Shown here in pieces: positions 4,139 through 52,542 of a stretch of DNA of 64,000 bases. Made by a program: the position numbers and the translations under genes. The stretch covers positions 18,082 to 82,081 of the forward strand of contig JBGSQK010000020.1 of the NCBI GenBank assembly GCA_041738135.1, written 5' to 3'. Origin of the DNA: Alphaproteobacteria bacterium (lineage in GTDB: Bacteria; Pseudomonadota; Alphaproteobacteria; JAGOMX01). The notes under the pieces were generated by a model. That model saw only the letters and a list, made by a program, of their open reading frames with translations, did no database searches and was not told where the DNA came from. Position 1 is the stretch's first letter, and each line of letters begins with the position of its first letter.

Positions 4139-4141
4139 CCT

Positions 4142-4235
4142 TTAACCTCTCCCCAAGCGGAAGTAGGTTCAGAGCGAAGCGTAGGGGTGAGAGGGCGGCT
4201 GCGATTAAGTTAAGGGCAGTGGGGTAAGGGGTCTT
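4142..4235. repeat. MITE-like palindromic element, family C (TTAACCTCTCCCC...GAGCGAAGCG(G/T)AGGGGTGAG...), degenerate copy
   Basis: It shares TTAACCTCTCCCC...AGAGCGAAGCGTAGGGGTGAGAGGG with copies at 14448, 17121 and 25477. Confidence 0.6.
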
Positions 4236-7962: not shown

Positions 7963-8685
7963 TCATGTAATACCTAAATAGGCTTTTTGGATGGATTTAT
8001 CGTTTTTAAATACATCCGGCGTTCCAGATAAAACAACTCTGCCTGTTTCAATCAGATAAACATAATCAGCAATGCCTAAGGCCAAAGAAACGTTTTGTTC
8101 GATCAGTAGAACACTTATTTTTGCCTCATCGCATATTCTACGAACCGAGGAAAATATGGCTTTGATCAACAACGGCGCCAGACCCAATGACGGCTCATCC
8201 ATCAACAACAGTTTGGGTTTTTGCATTATGGTGCGGGCTATGGCAAGCATTTGTTGCTCACCGCCGGATAGGGTGCCGGCCTGTTGATAAAGCCGCTCTT
8301 TCAGAATGGGGAAATAGGTATACACCAAGTCTAGGTCGTCCTTAATAGCTACTTTGTCTTTCCTCAGGTACGAGCCCATTAAGAGGTTCTCAGCAACTGA
8401 AAGCTCCTGGAACGTCCCCCTCATTTCGGGTACATAAGCGACACCACTTCTGATGATGTCGTGGGTTTCCATTTTTGATATGTCTTGGCCTTGGAAAATG
8501 ACCTGGCCTTTTTTTTCATAGAGACCAATAATTCCATTTAATATGGATGTTTTACCTGCACCATTGGCGCCCAGTATGCTGCATACCTGGCCTTCTTCCA
8601 CCTTAAAGTTCACGTCAAATACCACTTGGTTGTAAGCAAAGAATACATCTAAATGGCGGGCTTCAAAAAATGTCATATCAATCAC
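7963..8685 (-). CDS. livF: Branched-chain amino acid ABC transporter ATP-binding protein LivF
   Basis: It has Walker A (GANGAGKTS), the ABC signature (LSGGEQQ) and Walker B (LLLMDEPSLGLAP). It overlaps livG by 8 bp. Confidence 0.85.
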   Translation of the reverse strand: MIDMTFFEARHLDVFFAYNQVVFDVNFKVEEGQVCSILGANGAGKTSILNGIIGLYEKKGQVIFQGQDISKMETHDIIRSGVAYVPEMRGTFQELSVAENLLMGSYLRKDKVAIKDDLDLVYTYFPILKERLYQQAGTLSGGEQQMLAIARTIMQKPKLLLMDEPSLGLAPLLIKAIFSSVRRICDEAKISVLLIEQNVSLALGIADYVYLIETGRVVLSGTPDVFKNDKSIQKAYLGIT

Positions 8686-9475
8686 TGGCTCCCAAATAAA
8701 CTTTGATCACTTCAGGATGTTCTTGCACATGCTTTGCTGTACCATGCGCTATGAGCTGACCCGAATTCAGAGCAATCACATAATCAGAAACTTCCATGAG
8801 TAATTTCATGTGGTGTTCAATGAGTAATATGGAGATCTTGTATCTGTCCCTTAGGTCCAAGATCATTTCCTTCAATCCTTCAATATCCCCATGACTTAAA
8901 CCACCAGCGGGCTCGTCTAAGAGCAACAGTCTAGGGCGGCACATCAATGCGCGCGCCATATCCATACGTTTAATGGTGACAAACTGCAGTGATTTAATGG
9001 GTGAATGCGCAATATCAGCCAGGCCAAAATCATCCAGTATTTCCATAGCACGCTCACGAAGCAGTTTGTTATCCGCGCGCGCGCTGGGCAGAGATAAAGC
9101 ATTGGCAATAGTTCCGGCCTTCGCTAGCGAGTGCCCACCCACCATAACATTCTCCAATACGGTCATGGAATGGTATGGAGCCAAATGCTGAAACGTGCGA
9201 CTAATTCCCAAACCCACAATCTTGTGTGGTGGATGTTGTAAAATGTTTTGACCTTTAAATAATATTTCACCTTCTGCAGGCTCCACCAGACGACTAAAAC
9301 AATTGAATAAAGTCGTTTTACCTGATCCGTTAGGACCAATGAGCCCTAAGATCTGTTCCTCATGCATTGCGAAGCTTACATTATTCAAAGCAACAATGCC
9401 CGAAAAACGAACAACTAAGTTGTTAATTGTTAAAAGGTTATTTGCTACATCGTCCATATGATCTGTTCTTTGCAT
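8678..9475 (-). CDS. livG: Branched-chain amino acid ABC transporter ATP-binding protein LivG
   Basis: It has Walker A (GPNGSGKTT) and the LivG-type N-terminus LTINNLVVRFSGIVALNNVSF. The true start may be the internal Met (MDDVANN). Confidence 0.85.
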   Translation of the reverse strand: MQRTDHMDDVANNLLTINNLVVRFSGIVALNNVSFAMHEEQILGLIGPNGSGKTTLFNCFSRLVEPAEGEILFKGQNILQHPPHKIVGLGISRTFQHLAPYHSMTVLENVMVGGHSLAKAGTIANALSLPSARADNKLLRERAMEILDDFGLADIAHSPIKSLQFVTIKRMDMARALMCRPRLLLLDEPAGGLSHGDIEGLKEMILDLRDRYKISILLIEHHMKLLMEVSDYVIALNSGQLIAHGTAKHVQEHPEVIKVYLGASD

Positions 9476-9507
9476 ACATGTTTCATTTCATTGTACCATA
9501 AAGAAGA

Positions 9508-9523
9508 ACGGTATTAATACCGT
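9508..9523. promoter_or_regulatory. Perfect 16-bp palindrome ACGGTATTAATACCGT in the liv operon promoter region (candidate operator)
   Basis: A perfect dyad 33-48 bp upstream of the livG start codon on the transcribed strand. Confidence 0.4.
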
Positions 9524-9655
9524 CCATGTTTAAATATATTACACATTGATTAATTTATAGTTAATTATTTGATGTAATACGCGAATTTTTTGCGATTTTC
9601 CAGACCCCAATATACGTCATGGAGAGTTGTTGTAGTGGAAACAAAATGACAAAAC

Positions 9656-9774
9656 CCCCGTCATTGCGAGCCCTCTTGGGGCGTGGCAATCTACTGAGGT
9701 TTGTCCGCTCGCTAAAGGTTGCTAAAACGAAAAAAGTAGATTGCCACGCCCCAAGAGGGGCTCGCAATGACGGG
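9656..9774. repeat. MITE-like palindromic element, family B (CCCCGTCATTGCGAGCCCCTCTTGGGGCGTGGCAATCTAC...GTAGATTGCCACGCCCCAAGAGGGGCTCGCAATGACGGG), copy 1
   Basis: About 119 bp with roughly 40-bp terminal inverted repeats. Copies lie at 9879, 10365 and 38797. Confidence 0.85.
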
Positions 9775-9878
9775 TGTGGGGTCGTCTTTATTAAAATTTA
9801 CCGCATTTTAGGTGTCGAGTTGCTTCTGTTGCTTCTAATGACGAAGGATTGTTTTAGGGTCACCAAAATGCCCAACCT

Positions 9879-9995
9879 CCGTCATTGCGAGCCCCTCTTG
9901 GGGCGTGGCAAACTACTTTCTTCGCTTCAGACTTATGCAAAACGGCAACACCAAAGTAGATTGCCACGCCCCAAGAGGGGCTCGCAATGACGGGG
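9879..9995. repeat. MITE-like palindromic element, family B, copy 2
   Basis: It has the same termini as copy 1 and sits 105 bp from it. Confidence 0.85.
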
Positions 9996-10004
9996 ATGGA
10001 GAAT

Positions 10005-10289
10005 CTATATAATATCCCTATATAAATCACGCCATTGTGGATTCATTTTTTCTATCAGATCAACCTTCTTTTTTCTTGAGCCGCCCTTGATTTGCTTTTC
10101 ACGGGCGATTGCCTCATCCATCGATGCATAAAACTCATAGTAAACTAAATGGGAACAATGATATTGACTGGAAAAACACTTCTTCGTAGGATTTTTGTGT
10201 TGATAAGTTCTGTGAACCAAATAAGCCGTAACCCCAGTATAAACTACTCCATCTTTTCTGCTGGCCATTATGTAAGTTGCTGGTTGCAT
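10005..10289 (-). CDS. GIY-YIG nuclease superfamily small protein (UPF0213/YhbQ-like)
   Basis: The 94-aa ORF reads YIMASRKDGVVYTGVTAYLVHRTYQHK...EFYASMDEAIAREKQIKGGSRKKKVDLIEKMNPQWRDLY, the typical GIY-Y(T)G, conserved R and E arrangement. Confidence 0.75.
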   Translation of the reverse strand: MQPATYIMASRKDGVVYTGVTAYLVHRTYQHKNPTKKCFSSQYHCSHLVYYEFYASMDEAIAREKQIKGGSRKKKVDLIEKMNPQWRDLYRDII

Positions 10290-10364
10290 ATAGTTTTCCC
10301 CCCCTATTTTTGGAGAAACATATCAAATTTGGACATTGATGTGAATAAATAAATCAGCCACCAC

Positions 10365-10486
10365 CCCCGCCATTGCGAGCCCCGCTTGGGGCGTGGCAAT
10401 CTATTTTCTTCGCAGCAATTTACTAATCAATAACGGCGGCACCACAGTAGATTGCCGCACCCCAAGAAGGGCTCGCAATGACGGGG
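10365..10486. repeat. MITE-like palindromic element, family B, copy 3 (slightly diverged termini)
   Basis: CCCCCGCCATTGCGAGCCCCGCTTGGGGCGTGGCAATCTA...GTAGATTGCCGCACCCCAAGAAGGGCTCGCAATGACGGGG. Confidence 0.8.
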
Positions 10487-10582
10487 ATGGGGAAATTTCA
10501 CTCCACCTACAAACAACAAAAAAAGCCCCCTGCCGGGGTGGGACCCTTTGGCAGGAGGCTTCTTGTTAGACTTTAGTTCGGT

Positions 10583-12361
10583 TTAGAACCTGACTGTCAA
10601 ACCTGAGTACACGATTTGTACTGGCTTGAACTTGTCGTTTTGTCCTCTACCTTTTCTTTTTAGCGACATGTTGTCGTAACGCAGATAGAGCCAAGAACCA
10701 GCGGCATCAACATCCTGTTGGATACCAACACCCCAGTTAGTACCAACTAGGTGGGTAGGACCACCGGTGGTGACACCAAAAGTACCTGAACCTGTCGCCG
10801 GAAGGTTAGTCAGCGGATCCAAGGCCATAGCTGTCCATTGACCATAGTTGGTAATAAAGTGGGTATTTCCTACACCGAAGAATTTATCGGTATAACCCAA
10901 CTTACCTGCCAAGACCTGTCCGTCTTTTTGTTTGGTTCCAGGATTTCTACCCGATCCAGGAACACCTGGTGTTGGGCTATTAGTGAAATCGAGAATATTT
11001 TGAGGAAGGTTATTGACCAGACGCCACTTTCTCTTTACCCAAGTGAATTGAGTGTTGATACCTGTACCGATTTTACCGGACATACTGAACGGCAGCAAGA
11101 TACCAAACGCCGCATTCATAGTATCAAACTTAGGGCCTCTGTAATTGAAAGGGTTATATTGATACGTGGCCAATAGCTCAGGCAAAACACCGGCTGGAAG
11201 AGGAGGCGCAATGTTCACAGGAGCTGGAAGCAGTGGAGCAAATGGGTTAGCACCCGCCGCTTGACCATTAAACTGTTGACTGTTTGCAAAAAGTATGGGG
11301 AAGTTTTGAGCAACAGTATAGCCCTCACCTGGTTCTTGTGTATGGTTACGTGACCAGCTGGCACCCATAGAGATAATAGTCTTAGTGTTTGCCCAAGGAA
11401 TACGGAACAAATTAGTCCATTTATAGGCCACATCAAAAAGATCACCAATATGCTGGTAACCGTGTGCCACTGCCAAACTCATGCCGTTAAACCAAGATTC
11501 CTGATCCACAATTACAGGCGTTGTATACATTATACGATCAGCCTGTGATGTAAGATTTGTACCATCACCCGGATTAAAAATCGTGGCGCCCGGAACAAGC
11601 GTTGACCCGCCATATGGATTGGTTGCAACGGGGTTATTGAAACGTTGTGGTACAAATACCGACCCAATTCGCGAGTTGGGAGAAATAGGGTTGTAGTTTG
11701 CTGCAGGATTTGGACGAGGAGCATTCTTATACCTAAACGCCATACCGCCCATAGTTGTAAACGGATGCAGCATAGTGAAGGTAAAAGACAAGTCCGTACC
11801 GAAAATGATACCAGAACCAGCCATGGCGCCGCGACCTAAGTTAATTCTACCCCATTTAAAGCTATCGATTGTAACTTCGCTGCGGGTTAAGAATATATTC
11901 CTAACAGCTTCAGCCTGACTTTGTGAGCGGTGTATATCTGTAAGTGCACCACCTGCAATCGGACCAACCGTTCCGTTAGAGCCATAGGAAACACCCAAGA
12001 ACGCACCGAATGTCAGACCAGGAGCCACGCGGCCCTTACCATCAAACTGGATGAAAGACGTCAAGTTGGCAGGAGTTGTGTAGGAGGTGTTGGAATGAAA
12101 TCCGTTATCCGCCCATTGTACGGCCCTGTTTGCCCAACCGGATAGTCTCATTTCATAGATTTCAAACGCTTTAACCGCATGATCTTCTAAGAACTTAACT
12201 TTTCCGTCTAATGTATCGATACGCGATGCGTTATCGTCGCAACAAGGCGGAACCCCGCTTGGTGCTGGACCAGCATTCGCAAGCACTGGGCTGTAACTAG
12301 CAGCCGCCAGCGCTAGCAAGCTAGCCGTTAGAGTTATTTTAAGTGGCCTCATCTGTCTCAT
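10583..12361 (-). CDS. Outer-membrane beta-barrel (porin-like) protein, paralog 1
   Basis: The 592-aa ORF has a signal peptide (…ASLLALAAASYSPVLANA), an N-terminal coiled-coil segment, many Gly/aromatic-rich amphipathic segments and a C-terminal ...IVYSGLTVRF ending in Phe, the OMP signature. It shares many collinear blocks with 12881..14296. Confidence 0.6.
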   Translation of the reverse strand: MRQMRPLKITLTASLLALAAASYSPVLANAGPAPSGVPPCCDDNASRIDTLDGKVKFLEDHAVKAFEIYEMRLSGWANRAVQWADNGFHSNTSYTTPANLTSFIQFDGKGRVAPGLTFGAFLGVSYGSNGTVGPIAGGALTDIHRSQSQAEAVRNIFLTRSEVTIDSFKWGRINLGRGAMAGSGIIFGTDLSFTFTMLHPFTTMGGMAFRYKNAPRPNPAANYNPISPNSRIGSVFVPQRFNNPVATNPYGGSTLVPGATIFNPGDGTNLTSQADRIMYTTPVIVDQESWFNGMSLAVAHGYQHIGDLFDVAYKWTNLFRIPWANTKTIISMGASWSRNHTQEPGEGYTVAQNFPILFANSQQFNGQAAGANPFAPLLPAPVNIAPPLPAGVLPELLATYQYNPFNYRGPKFDTMNAAFGILLPFSMSGKIGTGINTQFTWVKRKWRLVNNLPQNILDFTNSPTPGVPGSGRNPGTKQKDGQVLAGKLGYTDKFFGVGNTHFITNYGQWTAMALDPLTNLPATGSGTFGVTTGGPTHLVGTNWGVGIQQDVDAAGSWLYLRYDNMSLKRKGRGQNDKFKPVQIVYSGLTVRF

Positions 12362-12880: not shown

Positions 12881-14296
12881 CTACAACTTAACCATCAACC
12901 CAGAATAAACAATATTCACAGGCTTAAACCGGTCAGCCGTCCCCTTACGCTTCAGCCTGTAGTTATCATATCGCAAGTAAACTGCCGTACCAGCCGCCTC
13001 AATGTTTTGCACCACACCTGTACCCCAGTTTGTACCAACCATGGTAATGGGCCGACCTGTGCCTGTGCTACCTGGAATGAGCGGTGAGGCATTAGTCCAG
13101 AAATCAATATCCATAGCCCTCCACTGGCCGTAACTGGCAACCCAAGCCGTTTTACCCGCTGCGAAATACTGGTCCAAATAACCAATCTTGCCTTGCAAAG
13201 CACGACCATTGGCTTGATTGGCCATCTTCCACTTACGACTAGCGCCAGAGAAATGAAAGTTAAAACCAGTTCCTTCTTTTCCTGAGAAACTAAACGGCGT
13301 CAACACACCAATAGCGCCCGTAAACGTGTCAAACTTTGGGCCTTTAAATAGGTTTGAGTTACTACTAACCAAAGGGTTGGGATTGCCTAAAACTGCTGCA
13401 TTCTGCATAAAGTTAAAGCCTTGGATATAATCTTGGGTATGATTCCGCGCCCAACTGGTTTGCGCAACGATTGTATACTTAGCCAAAATCGCGGCAAACT
13501 TTAAAGCCACATCAAACAAATCGCCCACATTTTGATAAGAATGGGATGTGCTGAGGTTAAAGCCATAATAGTTAGGGCTGTCGTAACGAATTCGATCATT
13601 CCTACCGTAAATGCTGCCACCATCCCCATGCTCGAAAACCAAAGCACCTGGCTTTAATGTCGCATCTGGACTATTTGGGTTCTCGTTATAAGGCCTGCCG
13701 TTGCGAGCATTTCTAAAGCTAATGCCGCCCATAGATGAATATGGGTGCAAGAAGTAATAGGTACCGGAAAGATCCGTATAATAAACCACACCGGCGGATG
13801 CCATAAGACCCCTACCTAGCGATAGCTTACCGAAGTGTTTGCTGTCTGCGGTTACTTCCGATTCCCGGATAATAATATTCCTCATGGCAAGAGAGTTGGA
13901 CTGAGAACGATGCACATCCACAAACGTGTTACCGCCTGTGTTGCCTGTGGTACCGTTAGAAGCATAATCCATTTGGATTTTCGCACCCATAGTAAAATCA
14001 GGAGCCACGTCCACTGTACCCAACACTTGCACGTTGGAGGTGACGTTGTCTGGTGATACCGTGGATACGTTGGAATGAAATCCATTGTCTGCCCATTGTA
14101 GGGCACGGTTAACCCAGCCCGACAAGGTTATCTTGATAGAATCAGACGTCACCGCATGATCTTCCAGCTTCTTAACCCGCGTTTCCAAGTCAGGCTTACA
14201 AGCCTCATCGGTTTTTTCTTCCGCATGAAGTGTGTTTTGCATCCCCGCCGTCAGAACGAGAGCACTCAGTGTTAGTAAGTTTTTATTTTCAAACAT
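12881..14296 (-). CDS. Outer-membrane beta-barrel (porin-like) protein, paralog 2
   Basis: The 471-aa ORF has a signal peptide. Blocks conserved with paralog 1 include LEDHAV, SGW(A/V)NRA(V/L)QWADNGFHSN, VHRSQS, GDLFDVA, GPKFDT, GQW(T/R)AMD and GTNWG. The C-terminus is ...IVYSGLMVKL. Confidence 0.6.
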   Translation of the reverse strand: MFENKNLLTLSALVLTAGMQNTLHAEEKTDEACKPDLETRVKKLEDHAVTSDSIKITLSGWVNRALQWADNGFHSNVSTVSPDNVTSNVQVLGTVDVAPDFTMGAKIQMDYASNGTTGNTGGNTFVDVHRSQSNSLAMRNIIIRESEVTADSKHFGKLSLGRGLMASAGVVYYTDLSGTYYFLHPYSSMGGISFRNARNGRPYNENPNSPDATLKPGALVFEHGDGGSIYGRNDRIRYDSPNYYGFNLSTSHSYQNVGDLFDVALKFAAILAKYTIVAQTSWARNHTQDYIQGFNFMQNAAVLGNPNPLVSSNSNLFKGPKFDTFTGAIGVLTPFSFSGKEGTGFNFHFSGASRKWKMANQANGRALQGKIGYLDQYFAAGKTAWVASYGQWRAMDIDFWTNASPLIPGSTGTGRPITMVGTNWGTGVVQNIEAAGTAVYLRYDNYRLKRKGTADRFKPVNIVYSGLMVKL

Positions 14297-14431: not shown

Positions 14432-14617
14432 TGGGGCTTTGCCCCACTTAACCTCTCCCCTTGTGGGAGAGGTCCGGAGCGAAGCGGAGGGGTGAGGGGC
14501 ACAAAAAAGCAATGTTTATCCCCCTCACCCGGCCTTCGGCCGACCTCTCCCACGGGGGGAGAGGTGAAGTCTCATGTTATTTTCTCAAATATCTTGGGGT
14601 TTGGGGCAAAGCCCCAA
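14432..14617. repeat. MITE-like palindromic element, family C, full-length copy flanked by a GGGGCTTTGCCCC/GGGGCAAAGCCCC hairpin pair
   Basis: TTAACCTCTCCCCTTGTGGGAGAGGTCCGGAGCGAAGCGGAGGGGTGAGGG...CCCTCACCCGGCC...CCTCTCCCACGGGGGGAGAGGTGAAG, with small GC hairpins at both flanks. Confidence 0.7.
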
Positions 14618-17049: not shown

Positions 17050-17120
17050 AATTGCCCCTCTTTATTTTTGTTTATTATAGCATTGATGTGAGGGGGGCAC
17101 TATAGGCATTAAGGTGCCAT

Positions 17121-17175
17121 TTAACCTCTCCCCTTGTGGGAGAGGTCCGGAGCGAAGCGTAGGGGTGAAGGGACT
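17121..17175. repeat. Family C element, half copy
   Basis: TTAACCTCTCCCCTTGTGGGAGAGGTCCGGAGCGAAGCGTAGGGGTGAAGGG is identical to the left arm of the copy at 14448. Confidence 0.65.
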
Positions 17176-28905: not shown

Positions 28906-29070
28906 CCCCGTCATCCAGAGCGCGCCTCGGCAAAGCCGAGGAAGCGTGGGATCCAGAATATGAGCGTCGCGCAGCGACTCATTATAGCTATACGGAGCCG
29001 CTATCGCGGCACTCATTATCTGGATCCCACGCTTCCTCGGCTTTGCCGAGGCGCGCTCTGGATGACGGGG
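28906..29070. repeat. MITE-like palindromic element, family A (subtype 2), copy 2
   Basis: CCCCGTCATCCAGAGCGCGCCTCGGCAAAGCCGAGGAAGCGTGGGATCCAG...CTGGATCCCACGCTTCCTCGGCTTTGCCGAGGCGCGCTCTGGATGACGGGG, nearly identical to the copy at 40036. Confidence 0.85.
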
Positions 29071-36265: not shown

Positions 36266-36285
36266 ACGTAAGAAGCCCCGTCATC

Positions 36286-36443
36286 CAGAGCGCGCCTCCG
36301 CATAGCGGAGGAAGCGAAGGATCCAGCGTATGTGCGCGAGCGAATGCGAGCTCCGTATTAAAGTATGATCGAGTTCGCATACGCTCACACTTTTATGCTG
36401 GATCCCACGCAGCAACGCTACGCTTATGCTGCTCTGGATGACG
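36286..36443. repeat. MITE-like palindromic element, family A (subtype 1), copy 3
   Basis: CCCCGTCATCCAGAGCGCGCCTCCGCATAGCGGAGGAAGCGAAGGATCCAGC...GCTGGATCCCACGCAGCAACGCTACGCTTATGCTGCTCTGGATGACG, closest to the copy at 1228. Confidence 0.85.
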
Positions 36444-38691: not shown

Positions 38692-38796
38692 GGTTTCTTA
38701 ATATTAATAAGACAACAATACAGTTCACGCGCCACCGTCATTGCGGGTAACTCAACCCCCCAAAAGGGGTAAATTTAAATCAATGACAAACCTACT

Positions 38797-38916
38797 CCCG
38801 TCATTGCGAGCCCCTCTTGGGGCGCGGCAATCTACTGTGACGTAACCGTTTAACATCAGTCTGCGGTAGAGAAGAAAGTAGATTGCCACGCCCCAAGAGG
38901 GGCTCGCAATGACGGG
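38797..38916. repeat. MITE-like palindromic element, family B, copy 4
   Basis: CCCGTCATTGCGAGCCCCTCTTGGGGCGCGGCAATCTACTG...AGTAGATTGCCACGCCCCAAGAGGGGCTCGCAATGACGGG. Confidence 0.85.
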
Positions 38917-39098
38917 AATGGGGACATTTGTTAGCCCTACAAAAATCTTCGTCACTAGAAGTAAATCAATACCCGCGAAATGTGGGAATAGGTGCAAACT
39001 GTTTCTTTGCCTAGTAATAGCTATAAAGTACTGGACATTTTCTCTATAAGTTATTAAAATAGTAATTAAGATACATTATTTATGTAGAGAAAGATAAA

Positions 39099-40035: not shown

Positions 40036-40200
40036 CCGTCATCCAGAGCGCAGCTCCGCGTATGCGGAGTAAGCGTGGGATCCAGCAAATAAGTGTTGCG
40101 CAGCAACTCTCTATAGCTATATAGAAGCCGCTTACGCGGCACTCATTCGCTGGATCCCACGCTTCCTCGGCCTTGCCGAGGCGCGCTCTGGATGACGGGG
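40036..40200. repeat. MITE-like palindromic element, family A (subtype 2), copy 4
   Basis: CCGTCATCCAGAGCGCAGCTCCGCGTATGCGGAGTAAGCGTGGGATCCAGC...GCTGGATCCCACGCTTCCTCGGCCTTGCCGAGGCGCGCTCTGGATGACGGGG. Confidence 0.85.
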
Positions 40201-49599: not shown

Positions 49600-52542
49600 T
49601 TAGACCGGGTCATGTACGATGACTTGGACAATTGCTTCAACTTGAACAATTGCTCCATTGTCGTGGCTTATGTAAGTATGATAATCGCCGGCTTGAGATC
49701 CTGCAGGGGGTGGTGCTGCAGCATCATTTAATTCCCAGTTTCCAGTACTCAAATTGACAATGTCGCTAGAATCGCCATGGAATATGATCGTATTATTGGT
49801 TGCTCCAATATTCAGTACATCAGATGCAGTGATAGAAACTGTATTTGCCAAGCCGTTGCTCATATCAATAGTTTCTATATTATTAATATTGGAAAATGTG
49901 ATCAGGCCGCTATCGTTCATCTGCAGGGTATCCATACCAGAGCCACCATCTATCAAAACATCCGTTGCATCGTAAACTATAGTGTCACTTCCTGAACCTG
50001 CACGAATAGTGTCGGCACCTGCCCCCCCATCAATGAAGTCATTGCCGCCGAGGCCATTGTCCGCACCTCCTGCATCACCATATATGGTGTCGTTTCCTGC
50101 ACCACCATAAATGGTATCATTGCCGCCATGTGCAGAACCTGCTAGATTTCCAGCCGTATCGCCATATATAGTGTCATTACCTGCATCACCATAAATAGTA
50201 TCGTTTCCTCCTTGAGAATTACCAGACATATTGCCTGCGGCATCGCCATAGATGATATCAGCTCCAGATCCGCCATGTATGTTGTCGTTGCCACCAACAG
50301 TGTTGTCAGCCATCGTGCCACCAGCATCTCCATAAATATTATCAGCAGCTGCACCACCATAAATCGTATCGTGACCGCCCAAAGCCGAACTGGACAAATT
50401 ACCACCCACATCACCGTATAGATTATTACCGGCTTTACCTCCAGCTCCGTCACCACCATGGATAATATCTGACCCCATTGTACCATTTGATATATTTCCA
50501 GAGGCGTCGCCATATACTATATCTGTGCCGGCTAAAGTATAAAAAGCTTGGTTTGTCGTGTTTCCTGTCATTGTATCGTTGCCGGATGTGCCAGTAGCTA
50601 CATCAAGGGTCTGCATGTTAAAGGTGTTCGAGACTTTTGCTCCCGAAGAATCGGTTGCAGTGACAGTTATATTAGCAGAGCTTGAATCTGAATATCCCGG
50701 CATTCCTGAAATAACACCTGTTTGAGAATCAATGGTGGCCCATGATGGTGCCCCGCTCATGGTATAAGTGAGAGAAGCACCCGCATCAACATCTGAGAAA
50801 AATGAAGAGACGTTATAGTTTACAGCCTGACCTTCTTCGCCAACAAATGCGGCAATCTGAGATACCGTTGGCGCGTCATTGGTATTGTTAACTGTGAGCT
50901 GGAAAGTATCTTGTACGGTTGAACCATGTGAGTCAGTAGCGACTACGGTGATGTTGGCAACTCCCACGTCGCCGTTGGCAGGCGTACCTGAAATGACGCC
51001 TGTGTTGGCATCAATGGTAACCCAAGCTGGAGTAACATTGGCCAAAGAATAGGTCAACGAATCGCCCACGTCTACATCCGCAAATTGCCCTGAGACATTG
51101 TAGTTCAATGCTGCATCTTCATTTACGGAAGTATCAGCAATGGGCGTGACCGTTGGGGCGTCATTGGTATTGTTCACTGTGATCTGGAAGGTATCTGTCA
51201 CAGTTGAGCCATGTGAGTCTGTGGCGATTATTGTTATGTTGGCAGATCCCACATCGCCGTTGCCTGGAGTTCCTGTAATCACGCCTGTGTTAGCATCAAT
51301 GGTGACCCAAGCTGGAGCACCATTAGCCAGGGAAAAGGTTAAATGATCGCCCGCGTCTATATCCGTAAAGTGTCCTGCCACATTGTAATGCAATGCTGCA
51401 TCCTCATTTATGGAAGTGTCGTTTATAGGGATTGCCGTCGGGGCATGCTCTACAGCATTTACGCCTATACTTAGGGAGCTCGAAATGCTTTGTCCTTGGC
51501 TATCTGTAGCTATTATAGTTAAATGCAAAATCCCTATATCACCGTGCCCCGGAGAACCAGTAAGAACACCGGTGGTTGCGTTCATACTTACCCAGGATGG
51601 CAGTGGGCTGCCGTCTTGAAGGATAGCGCTAAAGGTCAGATGATCACCTGTGTCTATATCACTAAAATAGCTATTTAAGTTCACGTTCAGGCCAGCTCCC
51701 TCATTAACGAATGTATCTGAGATAGCGATTACGGTTGGTGTATGGTTAGTATTAACTGGTGTGTCAATGAGCGTTTCTAAGTTTAACTGTGATTGTGAAG
51801 GGATTGCTACTTTTGTGGCAGTGATATGAAGACTAGAAATCCCCGATGGTTCACTGAAGGTGAATGTTGGTGTAATTGTTGTTTGGGCAACATCAAGCGA
51901 TTCATCATCCGTTTCAGTTAATAAGGCAGGATCTCCTGTTGTATGGTATTTACTTAGTACGGCGTTAAAGTCTTGTGATGTTTGCGTAGCAGCAGAATCC
52001 TGATTGCCCTCTGCATCAGCTGGATCCGTATGCGCATGGTTGGTTTCTTCAGATTGATTGTCATCACCTTCTTGGGTCTTTGCTTGTTCCGTATTACTCC
52101 TTATATCTGAAAATGCTAGCAAAGAAAGATTACTTACTGTTAGCTGAGAAATTGTGCTGTCCGCATTTATGACTGGATTGAGATTGTTTGCAGGGCCATT
52201 ACCCATATCTCGCAAATTGCCATTTGAAGAATTGAAATTAAAACGAGCAATATCTAAAATGTGGCTTTGAATATGAGTCGTACTTAATAGCATAATAGCG
52301 GCAAGGGCAGAGTCAGCTGAAATGGAGACATTGTTTTCATTTATAGCTATTGAGATTAGATCGGAAGAATTGTTTTGTGTGATCAGGTTTGAGTTATGTT
52401 CTTTTGAAGAATGATTATTTAATGTTGAACCATCATAGCTCATTGAGGTATTTAAAGAGACTATGGCAAATGACGAACTATTTCCATTATTATTTTGTTG
52501 CTTGCTCATAAATCTACCTGACTCAAGTTTCCTCGACTTCAT
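49600..52542 (-). CDS. Large exoprotein: Ser/Asn-rich N-terminus, four cadherin-like/Ig-like ~100-aa repeats, C-terminal RTX (GGxGxD) calcium-binding repeats
   Basis: Four tandem domains follow the pattern (D/H)APTV.PI.DT.VNEDAAL.YNV.G.F.D.D.GD.LT.SLAN..P.WVTIDANTGVI.GTP.NGDVG.ANIT..ATDSHGSTV. Then come at least 12 nonapeptide repeats (GGNDTIYGDAGNDTIYGD...). This architecture is typical of type-I-secreted adhesins. Confidence 0.75.
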   Translation of the reverse strand: MKSRKLESGRFMSKQQNNNGNSSSFAIVSLNTSMSYDGSTLNNHSSKEHNSNLITQNNSSDLISIAINENNVSISADSALAAIMLLSTTHIQSHILDIARFNFNSSNGNLRDMGNGPANNLNPVINADSTISQLTVSNLSLLAFSDIRSNTEQAKTQEGDDNQSEETNHAHTDPADAEGNQDSAATQTSQDFNAVLSKYHTTGDPALLTETDDESLDVAQTTITPTFTFSEPSGISSLHITATKVAIPSQSQLNLETLIDTPVNTNHTPTVIAISDTFVNEGAGLNVNLNSYFSDIDTGDHLTFSAILQDGSPLPSWVSMNATTGVLTGSPGHGDIGILHLTIIATDSQGQSISSSLSIGVNAVEHAPTAIPINDTSINEDAALHYNVAGHFTDIDAGDHLTFSLANGAPAWVTIDANTGVITGTPGNGDVGSANITIIATDSHGSTVTDTFQITVNNTNDAPTVTPIADTSVNEDAALNYNVSGQFADVDVGDSLTYSLANVTPAWVTIDANTGVISGTPANGDVGVANITVVATDSHGSTVQDTFQLTVNNTNDAPTVSQIAAFVGEEGQAVNYNVSSFFSDVDAGASLTYTMSGAPSWATIDSQTGVISGMPGYSDSSSANITVTATDSSGAKVSNTFNMQTLDVATGTSGNDTMTGNTTNQAFYTLAGTDIVYGDASGNISNGTMGSDIIHGGDGAGGKAGNNLYGDVGGNLSSSALGGHDTIYGGAAADNIYGDAGGTMADNTVGGNDNIHGGSGADIIYGDAAGNMSGNSQGGNDTIYGDAGNDTIYGDTAGNLAGSAHGGNDTIYGGAGNDTIYGDAGGADNGLGGNDFIDGGAGADTIRAGSGSDTIVYDATDVLIDGGSGMDTLQMNDSGLITFSNINNIETIDMSNGLANTVSITASDVLNIGATNNTIIFHGDSSDIVNLSTGNWELNDAAAPPPAGSQAGDYHTYISHDNGAIVQVEAIVQVIVHDPV

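Follow-up and report, generated by a model that had tools for sequence, protein, structure and literature searches.

A lone GIY-YIG gene between hairpin repeats upstream of a liv operon: a probable Ssn-type nuclease module in an alphaproteobacterium

The locus described here raises the question of why a lone gene for a small GIY-YIG nuclease lies among three copies of one palindromic repeat, directly upstream of a liv operon. It is found in a stretch of 64,000 nucleotides from an alphaproteobacterial genome (assembly GCA_041738135.1, contig JBGSQK010000020.1, positions 18,082 to 82,081), hereafter called the window. A 1107-bp intergenic gap of the window (9476-10582) separates two minus-strand genes, one of the outer-membrane-protein (OMP) type and one livG-like, and it contains three copies of one palindromic element, family B (B1, B2 and B3), together with a 94-aa open reading frame (ORF) sitting between B3 and B2. 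An earlier note on this DNA had reported three family-B copies around a lone GIY-YIG gene upstream of the liv operon, and the coordinates, a Pfam search and comparison with shuffled sequences confirm this cluster. The note suggested an insertion hotspot, or a nuclease gene hitchhiking with miniature inverted-repeat transposable elements (MITEs). This misses a better-supported link, in which the repeats are the predicted cognate hairpins of the nuclease, as in the Ssn system with its Ssn-related motifs (SRM). We consider it likely that positions 9656-10486 form an Ssn-type module, that is, a GIY-YIG nuclease gene bracketed by its cognate hairpin repeats.

The hairpin repeats and the single-domain nuclease

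SsnA of N. meningitidis, a member of the CDD family cd10448, is a 94-aa single-domain GIY-YIG protein. It binds its hairpin repeat, NTS (CGTCATTCCCGCGMAVGCGGGAATCYRG), solely in single-stranded DNA (ssDNA) and cuts just upstream of it, with no cleavage of double-stranded DNA (dsDNA), RNA or the complementary strand and no binding of RNA (Chenal 2025, PMC11893778). Across phyla, ssnA genes are flanked by SRM, at least one being present in 71% of cases and both sides being occupied in 42%, and cleavage of the protein's own motif has been shown for four homologs (Nm, Ne, Nw and Wolbachia) (PMC11893778).

The family-B element is a palindrome of ~120 bp in which two 37-nt CGTC-tagged hairpins are joined head to head; their consensus is CGTC-ATTGC-GAG-CCCC-TCTT-GGGG-CGTG-GCAAT-CTAC. 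The spacers that join the two arms measure 39-42 nt, a length kept across the copies. With up to 3 mismatches allowed, the 23-mer core of the arm (CATTGCGAGCCCCNCTTGGGGCG) has seven occurrences in the window, compared to 0.00 occurrences expected from 100 shuffles, and the eighth family-B arm carries a 1-nt deletion. Tags read CGTC in seven of the eight arms and CGCC in the remaining one, tails are CTAC or CTAT, and a conserved leader of ~8 nt (CCCCAYCC) stands ahead of most tags. Identity between copies is 89-97% in the arms and 55-74% in the spacers, for which the shuffled baseline is 56%. Weak spacer similarity puts the gene-flanking copies B2 and B3 in one orientation (their spacers are 74% identical) and B1 and B4, the latter located elsewhere in the window, in the inverted one.

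Folded as ssDNA, a single arm reaches -8.6 to -9.0 kcal/mol, with z ~-2.7 for the best-kept arms. It forms a 5-bp ATTGC/GCAAT outer stem, a GAG/CGTG internal loop, a 4-5-bp CCCC/GGGG inner stem and a TCTT loop, and these minimum-free-energy folds leave both the tag (CGTC) and the tail (CTAC) unpaired. A whole dimer can instead fold as ssDNA into one long hairpin at -40 to -53 kcal/mol (B3: -40 kcal/mol, z=-8; B2: -53 kcal/mol, z=-13.7).

The earlier description of family B as MITEs stands only in part: it is a repeated palindromic element, but its members are dimers of a 37-nt hairpin with diverged spacers rather than uniform MITE copies. All four copies are intergenic head-to-head dimers, and their terminal inverted repeats have arms of 37-45 nt that are 86-100% complementary. 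No target-site duplication was seen at these copies, the flanks merely extending the palindrome, and no transposase gene was found adjoining them. We therefore rejected the MITE label, as the terminal inverted repeats are present but both the duplication and a transposase-encoding parent element are missing. The sole gene seen between such ends, in the window and in its relatives, is the GIY-YIG nuclease gene. An Rfam search, which at the gathering score returned only tRNAs, gave nothing for the palindromes except sub-threshold matches to microRNA precursor hairpins, and a known structured-RNA family was rejected.

The window has no GIY-YIG ORF besides the one between B3 and B2, the product of which matches the Pfam family GIY-YIG (PF01541; E=6e-14, residues 4-75); no second domain was found in the Pfam search. 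With 94 aa, the protein falls in the size range of the Ssn family, roughly 90-150 aa. Aligned with 31 homologs, the protein retains all 26 columns that are invariant among them; Y6, Y17, G19, R27, H31, E64 and N83 are invariant throughout, and the catalytic set of GIY and YIG tyrosines, Arg, His, metal-binding Glu and Asn is conserved. An AF2 model (pLDDT 92) consists of one compact GIY-YIG fold, for which the best PDB matches are BH0048 (1zg2), Slx1, the UvrC N-terminal domain and I-TevI. The start codon is preceded by a Shine-Dalgarno-like GGGGGG run 8-13 nt upstream.

Two other groups of GIY-YIG proteins had to be considered. The earlier note had labelled the ORF as UPF0213-type, an assignment that we do not retain. 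Proteins of the UPF0213/YhbQ/BH0048 group (cd10456, Slx1-related) are likewise ~100 aa long with a single GIY-YIG domain, and 1zg2 is the best structural match to the model, but their sequence similarity to the window protein is only marginal (BH0048, E=0.04, 18 bits), compared to E=1e-26 to 1e-30 for homologs bracketed by NTS (see below), and no NCBIfam family matches the protein. We know of no association between UPF0213-type proteins and repeats. Homing endonucleases such as I-TevI and I-BmoI share the GIY-YIG catalytic fold and a variable genomic location. GIY-YIG homing enzymes have a separate DNA-binding domain, cut dsDNA and reside in introns or at phage intergenic sites, whereas the window protein is a catalytic domain alone and its gene lies on a bacterial chromosome, with hairpin repeats on either side. 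We rejected an intron- or intein-borne homing endonuclease, since the gene is free-standing and single-domain and splits no host gene.

Agreement with the Neisseria system is closer. The window protein is also a 94-aa single-domain GIY-YIG protein, and its gene too is bracketed by an oriented hairpin with a 5' CGTC tag, an AT(T)-initiated stem and a C-rich tail, copies of which are also found elsewhere in the genome, in intergenic positions and beside outer-membrane-protein genes. There are differences as well: the window stem, ATTGC-GAG...GCAAT, has an inner hairpin inserted into it, which makes the arm 37 nt long as opposed to 28 nt for NTS; the arms are arranged as long head-to-head dimers; and the protein belongs to a subclade with the signature REKQIKGGSRKKK, not to the KW(N/R)RAWK subclade.

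The repeats themselves resemble the superfamily of CGTC-tagged repetitive extragenic palindromic (REP) sequences, which is found mainly in Alphaproteobacteria and mainly as head-to-head dimers, and which has unpaired terminal tags (CGTC, or TGTC/CCTC), AT-initiated stems, 4-5-nt loops and short tails and includes the dRS3 repeats of Neisseria and RPE-4/RPE-6 of Rickettsia (Di Nocera 2013, PMC3733652). Family-B arms share the unpaired CGTC tag, the AT-started stem, a loop of 4 nt and a short tail that is likewise unpaired, and their dimers are likewise head-to-head, intergenic and downstream of ORFs. In contrast, the published stems are continuous over 8-9 bp and no enzyme was found to be associated with them (PMC3733652), whereas the window stem is bipartite (5 + 4-5 bp, interrupted by the GAG/CGTG internal loop) and an enzyme gene adjoins the repeats. 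A comparable arrangement is known from RAYT/REPIN systems, in which a single-copy enzyme gene is also flanked by hairpin repeats, recognised by the enzyme in single-stranded form, and gene-less inverted doublets are dispersed. RAYT, the REP-associated tyrosine transposase, is IS200/IS605-like; it is a Y1 HUH transposase with repeats tagged GTAG, while the window gene encodes a GIY-YIG hydrolase and the tag is CGTC.

Linkage, covariation and synteny across the family

Evidence that gene and repeats belong together, as the earlier note had supposed, comes from the 80 closest metagenomic homologs of the window protein (loci L037-L116; 49-60% identical, GC 31-68%). At least one GTCATTGCGAG arm (an 11-mer, at up to 1 mismatch) lies within 300 bp of the gene in all 80. 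Arm density is 6.35/kb near the gene but falls to 0.37/kb over the remainder of these loci, a 17-fold enrichment, with ~0.016/kb expected by chance. Within 150 bp, a forward arm is found upstream in 57 loci and a reverse arm downstream in 67, and 51 have both, with the tags pointing outward. The dominant layouts are single tags-outward arms (16 loci) and full dimers both upstream and downstream (13 loci); two loci have the layout of the window exactly, with a dimer on each side and a second dimer downstream, and altogether 15 conform to the pattern '+- gene +-(+-)'. In the window, the arms lie at -194(+), -78(-), +13(+), +125(-), +233(+) and +346(-) relative to the gene on its coding strand, so that one complete dimer lies upstream and two lie downstream. 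B3 thus presents the CGTC tag of its outer arm on the minus strand 194 nt ahead of the ssn ATG, and B2 begins 13 nt past the stop codon.

The best non-self homolog is 64% identical to the window protein. Its loci and those of the next homolog have single inverted arms on either side of the gene, CGTCATTGCGAG...GCAATCC upstream and GGATTGC...CTCGCAATGACG downstream. In one of these loci, L026 (2942-3354), an arm-ssn-arm unit is wedged between pdhA and pdhB, the genes for E1 alpha and E1 beta of pyruvate dehydrogenase, and is separated from them by only 58 and 66 bp; this operon-internal position suggests an insertion.

Protein type and stem type also vary together. The window protein bears the REKQIKGGSRKKK signature of the clade associated with ATTGCGAG stems. 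Of 78 cases with REKQIK[GA]GSRKKK, a segment that the window protein also has, 66 show ATTGCGAG stems and none shows an NTS-like stem; proteins with xW[RNQ]RAWK occur with AT[TC]CC[CG]GC stems and never with ATTGCGAG. Enzymes and sites that co-evolve as pairs would be expected to show such a pattern.

A bridge to the published family was obtained by scanning viral contigs for the exact NTS pattern, which yielded six NTS-bracketed GIY-YIG genes (L168, L118, L191, L189, L204 and L224). Their products are 41-49% identical to the window protein (E=1e-26 to 1e-30, coverage at least 92%).

The earlier note's view that the GIY-YIG gene is not part of a conserved gene order agrees with the closest relative found (L034, LivG 78% identical), in which livG is immediately preceded, on its own strand, by an OMP homolog (38-47% identical). 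In L034 the two genes are 288 bp apart, and this interval contains only a terminator hairpin and an AT-rich leader; neither the GIY-YIG gene nor CGTC repeats are present in it. Since L034 keeps the OMP-livG pair without gene or repeats, the module is a presence/absence polymorphism between these conserved neighbours. Base-level insertion boundaries are not definable against L034 because the intergenic DNA is too diverged. More distant liv relatives (including P0123 and P0124) have other upstream neighbours and likewise lack the gene, and are uninformative for an empty site.

By homology to SsnA of Neisseria and Wolbachia, the window protein would bind the arm hairpin when the DNA becomes single-stranded, during replication or repair or in incoming transforming or conjugative DNA. 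Hydrolysis would then be expected in the CCCCAYCC leader, a few nt 5' of the CGTC tag, and duplex DNA and the complementary strand would stay uncut. A cellular role such as restricting or modulating the recombination of motif-carrying ssDNA may follow from such an activity.

Several points weigh against assigning the locus to the Ssn family. The published SRM string, HGTCWYN(0-2)YYVSBRHN(0-5)WNVSBRGN(0-2)RNCYNB (PMC11893778), has 0 matches in the whole 64-kb window, and by this operational test of the paper, which asks for the motif within 500 bp on both sides, the gene is not SRM-flanked; the string matches only 1 of the 80 homolog loci, although the same implementation does match canonical NTS. 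The string is thus too narrow for the REKQIKGGSRKKK subtype, which falls outside this operational definition, and since all 80 loci carry arms, surveys based on it will undercount Ssn-repeat pairs. The published criterion for membership is a blastp hit to CAX49033.1 (E<1e-10, at least 75% coverage) or cd10448 as the top CDD hit (PMC11893778); here, membership is suggested through a proxy, the NTS-bracketed homologs. None of the four homologs with demonstrated nuclease activity (PMC11893778) comes from the subclade of the window protein. Finally, the dimer hairpin (-53 kcal/mol, 45 bp) would bury the tags and compete with the arm hairpins of ~-9 kcal/mol. Because this long duplex hairpin is preferred in ssDNA and SsnA does not cleave duplex DNA, the dimers may be poorer substrates than single arms.

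Mobility, transcription or chance

In an alternative that is partly compatible with an Ssn-type module, the arm-ssn-arm (or dimer-ssn-dimer) unit would itself be mobile and autonomous. The 120-bp dimers without a gene would then be its non-autonomous derivatives, spread by the nuclease, much as RAYT spreads REPINs, and the cluster in the window would be the master copy; in a variant of this idea, the dimers are homing targets and the gene invades their spacers through repair after cleavage. The minimal layout of an arm, ~20 nt, the gene and an arm, with tags outward, recurs in 16 of the 80 loci and is also exemplified by L026 and L023. Furthermore, L084 (1-620) and L088 (2800-3420) share an arm-ssn-arm unit of ~420 bp that is 92% identical within unrelated flanks, and the homology stops precisely where the downstream arm has its outer tag. 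The absence of the module from the OMP-livG gap of L034 is in line with mobility, as are the apparent lack of a dedicated transposase for CGTC REPs (Di Nocera 2013, PMC3733652) and the published likening of the ssn gene-repeat layout to an insertion sequence (Chenal 2025, PMC11893778).

The properties of the enzyme and of the copies point the other way. GIY-YIG proteins are hydrolytic nucleases with no known strand transfer, and there is no transposase or integrase gene near the module; to our knowledge, no transposition chemistry is known for a GIY-YIG hydrolase of the Ssn kind. No target-site duplication is visible. The spacers in the window are almost unrelated although the arms are 89-97% identical, which fits old copies with selection on, or conversion of, the arms better than recent copy-and-paste events. 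Identical proteins (P0079) on 22 contigs all lie in one genomic context, and the case of unrelated flanks is a single pair from different metagenomes. We therefore regard mobility driven by the nuclease as possible but doubtful. If true, a minimal mobile unit of ~400 bp using a GIY-YIG ssDNA nuclease would be the long-missing mobiliser of CGTC REPs. The L084 copy itself has an in-frame TAA (possibly marking a pseudogene), a tandemly duplicated upstream arm and, downstream, 18-nt tandem repeats of the tag end.

It is also conceivable that the hairpins act mainly at the level of RNA or transcription, as terminators, insulators or stabilisers of mRNA 3' ends for ssn, the OMP gene and liv, with the link to the nuclease being secondary; such a role would not exclude an Ssn-type module. 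The close spacing of B2 to the ssn stop codon fits with this, as does a T-rich run (GGGGGTTTTGTCATTTTGTTT) that follows B1 on the minus strand ahead of the livG leader, and B1 may act as a terminator or insulator of read-through from ssn before livG. In addition, dimers of a second repeat family (family A, see below) exactly fill gaps between convergent genes, and CGTC and GTAG REPs lie mostly 3' of ORFs and are probably transcribed (PMC3733652). However, a role in RNA leaves unexplained why the 11-mer tracks one nuclease clade in genomes of 31-68% GC and why protein and stem covary. B3 lies upstream of ssn, past a separate canonical terminator of the OMP gene; SsnA does not bind RNA (PMC11893778); and the palindromes belong to no Rfam family, having only the sub-threshold microRNA precursor matches. 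As the main function of the hairpins, this is improbable.

The weakest alternative, a permissive gap in which MITE-like repeats and an unrelated housekeeping gene of the UPF0213/YhbQ type came together by chance, draws on the intergenic position that these repeats share with other repeat families of the window, and on the finding that, of 22 genomic loci to which the repeat alone led, only 1 has a GIY-YIG gene no more than 8 kb away; it is effectively refuted by the 11-mer in 80 of 80 homolog loci from unrelated genomes, the 17-fold enrichment and the covariation of clade and stem, and further opposed by the presence of three of the window's four family-B dimers within 830 bp of the gene, by the E=0.04 of the UPF0213 structure and by the lack of synteny in relatives, and we give it almost no credence.

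Neighbouring genes and other repeats of the window

The coordinates of the module and of the features nearest to it are collected in Table 1. The livG-like gene is the first of a livG-F-H-M-binding-protein operon. On the other side of the module, the outer-membrane-type gene (10583-12361, minus strand) encodes 592 aa with a porin-like C-terminal Phe. It is adjoined by a paralog, a second porin-like OMP gene of 471 aa at 12881-14296, and the Pfam search found no match to either protein. The location of the module beside these paralogs echoes the published clustering of NTS near membrane-protein genes in Neisseria.

Table 1. Positions of the nuclease gene, the family-B dimers and adjacent features in the window
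Feature	Position	Strand	Remarks
LivG-like ABC ATPase gene	8678-9475	-	Pfam ABC_tran + BCA_ABC_TP_C
B1 dimer	9656-9777		arms 9659-9694 and 9736-9772; inverted relative to B2/B3, judging by spacer
B2 dimer	9876-9996		inner arm 9956-9992 (tag on minus), outer arm 9880-9916 (tag on plus); spacer 39 nt
ssn-like gene, single-domain GIY-YIG nuclease, 94 aa	10005-10289	-	ATG start, TAA stop; Pfam PF01541
Promoter-like site TTCACA-17-TGnTATGTT	10317-10345	-	between B3 and ssn start; consensus match only
B3 dimer, upstream of ssn	10364-10486		outer arm 10447-10483, inner arm 10367-10404 (tag variant CGCC); spacer 42 nt
B4 dimer	38794-38920		sole family-B dimer of the window away from the ssn gene

The earlier note had placed the hairpin DNA inside the liv promoter, a placing that the sequence does not support. 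The livG start lies 181 bp beyond the end of B1, and within this interval, outside the repeats, is the sole promoter-like site for livG (9517->9490, with an extended -10). Promoter-like sites in this region are consensus matches only and are no commoner than in shuffled sequence; L034, which lacks the module, has a leader about as long. From the position of this site downstream of B1 and the similar leader in L034, the repeats lie upstream of the probable liv promoter region and not inside it. The B1 junction is also present in an independent assembly of the same organism (L029), the contig of which breaks inside B1, as expected for a repeat.

Some 60 bp to the left of B4, a decayed lone arm at 38739-38790 (CGTCATTGCGGG... 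/ CGTCATTGCGGGTAACTCAACCCCCCAAAAGGGG) looks like the remnant of a further family-B-like unit. Family A is a second set of CGTC-tagged head-to-head dimers (arm CGTCATCCAGAGCGCGCCTCGGCAAAGCCGAGGAAGCGTGGGATCCAG; 1228-1393, 28909-29067, 36279-36443 and 40037-40197) built on the same plan of tag, outer stem, inner hairpin and tail, and each copy nearly exactly fills the gap between two convergent ORFs. As the window has a single GIY-YIG gene, a cognate enzyme for family A, if any, would be encoded elsewhere or shared. A third palindromic family (CCTCTCCCCTTGTGGGAGAGG ... GGGGTGAGGGG / CCCCTCACCC) has no CGTC tag and is found at 4139-4194, 14444-14560 and 17117-17172, one copy being directly downstream of the second OMP paralog. 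The window also contains a minus-strand ORF of 980 aa (49600-52542) with internal tandem repeats at 50069-50377 and 50852-51421 (285 bp x 2 at 81% identity; periodic units of 27/57/84 nt), the product of which looks like a repetitive surface or secreted protein.

Arms of the family-B type were also found among the genomic loci L001-L022. A metagenome-assembled genome (MAG) of the Rhodospirillales (JAYVOF01, 65% GC) has at least 17 copies of the 23-mer arm core of the window, which itself has 44% GC, and the partner arms in JAYVOF01 differ in the inner hairpin. In L005, an alphaproteobacterial MAG of 44% GC, a B-type arm forms a heterodimer with a different arm. Across the JAYVOF01 and L005 arms, the outer ATTGCGAG/GCAATCC part is conserved and the inner hairpin is variable. 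The ssn gene has a GC content of 37.5%, compared to 44% for the window, and it does not resemble a recent acquisition from the high-GC genomes in which the same arm occurs.

Taken together, these results make the cluster a likely further example of a gene-repeat relationship that was already explained in 2025 (Chenal 2025), and not a chance pile-up. On the reading that we prefer, an Ssn-type module, the repeat cluster is explained as the gene and recognition sites of a nuclease family described only in 2025. In the annotation of this genome, the 'family B MITEs' become CGTC-REP/SRM dimers, and the ORF becomes Ssn-like instead of UPF0213. What is modestly new is the nearly invariant motif of the subclade, the failure of the SRM string, the recurrent dimer-gene-dimer layout and a candidate specificity segment. 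For the family, a large Ssn subclade with the REKQIKGGSRKKK signature is tied to a nearly invariant CGTCATTGCGAG...GCAATC arm in genomes of 31-68% GC, and the covariation of protein and stem makes the segment after the REK motif a candidate specificity determinant, which would be useful for Ssn proteins as programmable ssDNA cutters.

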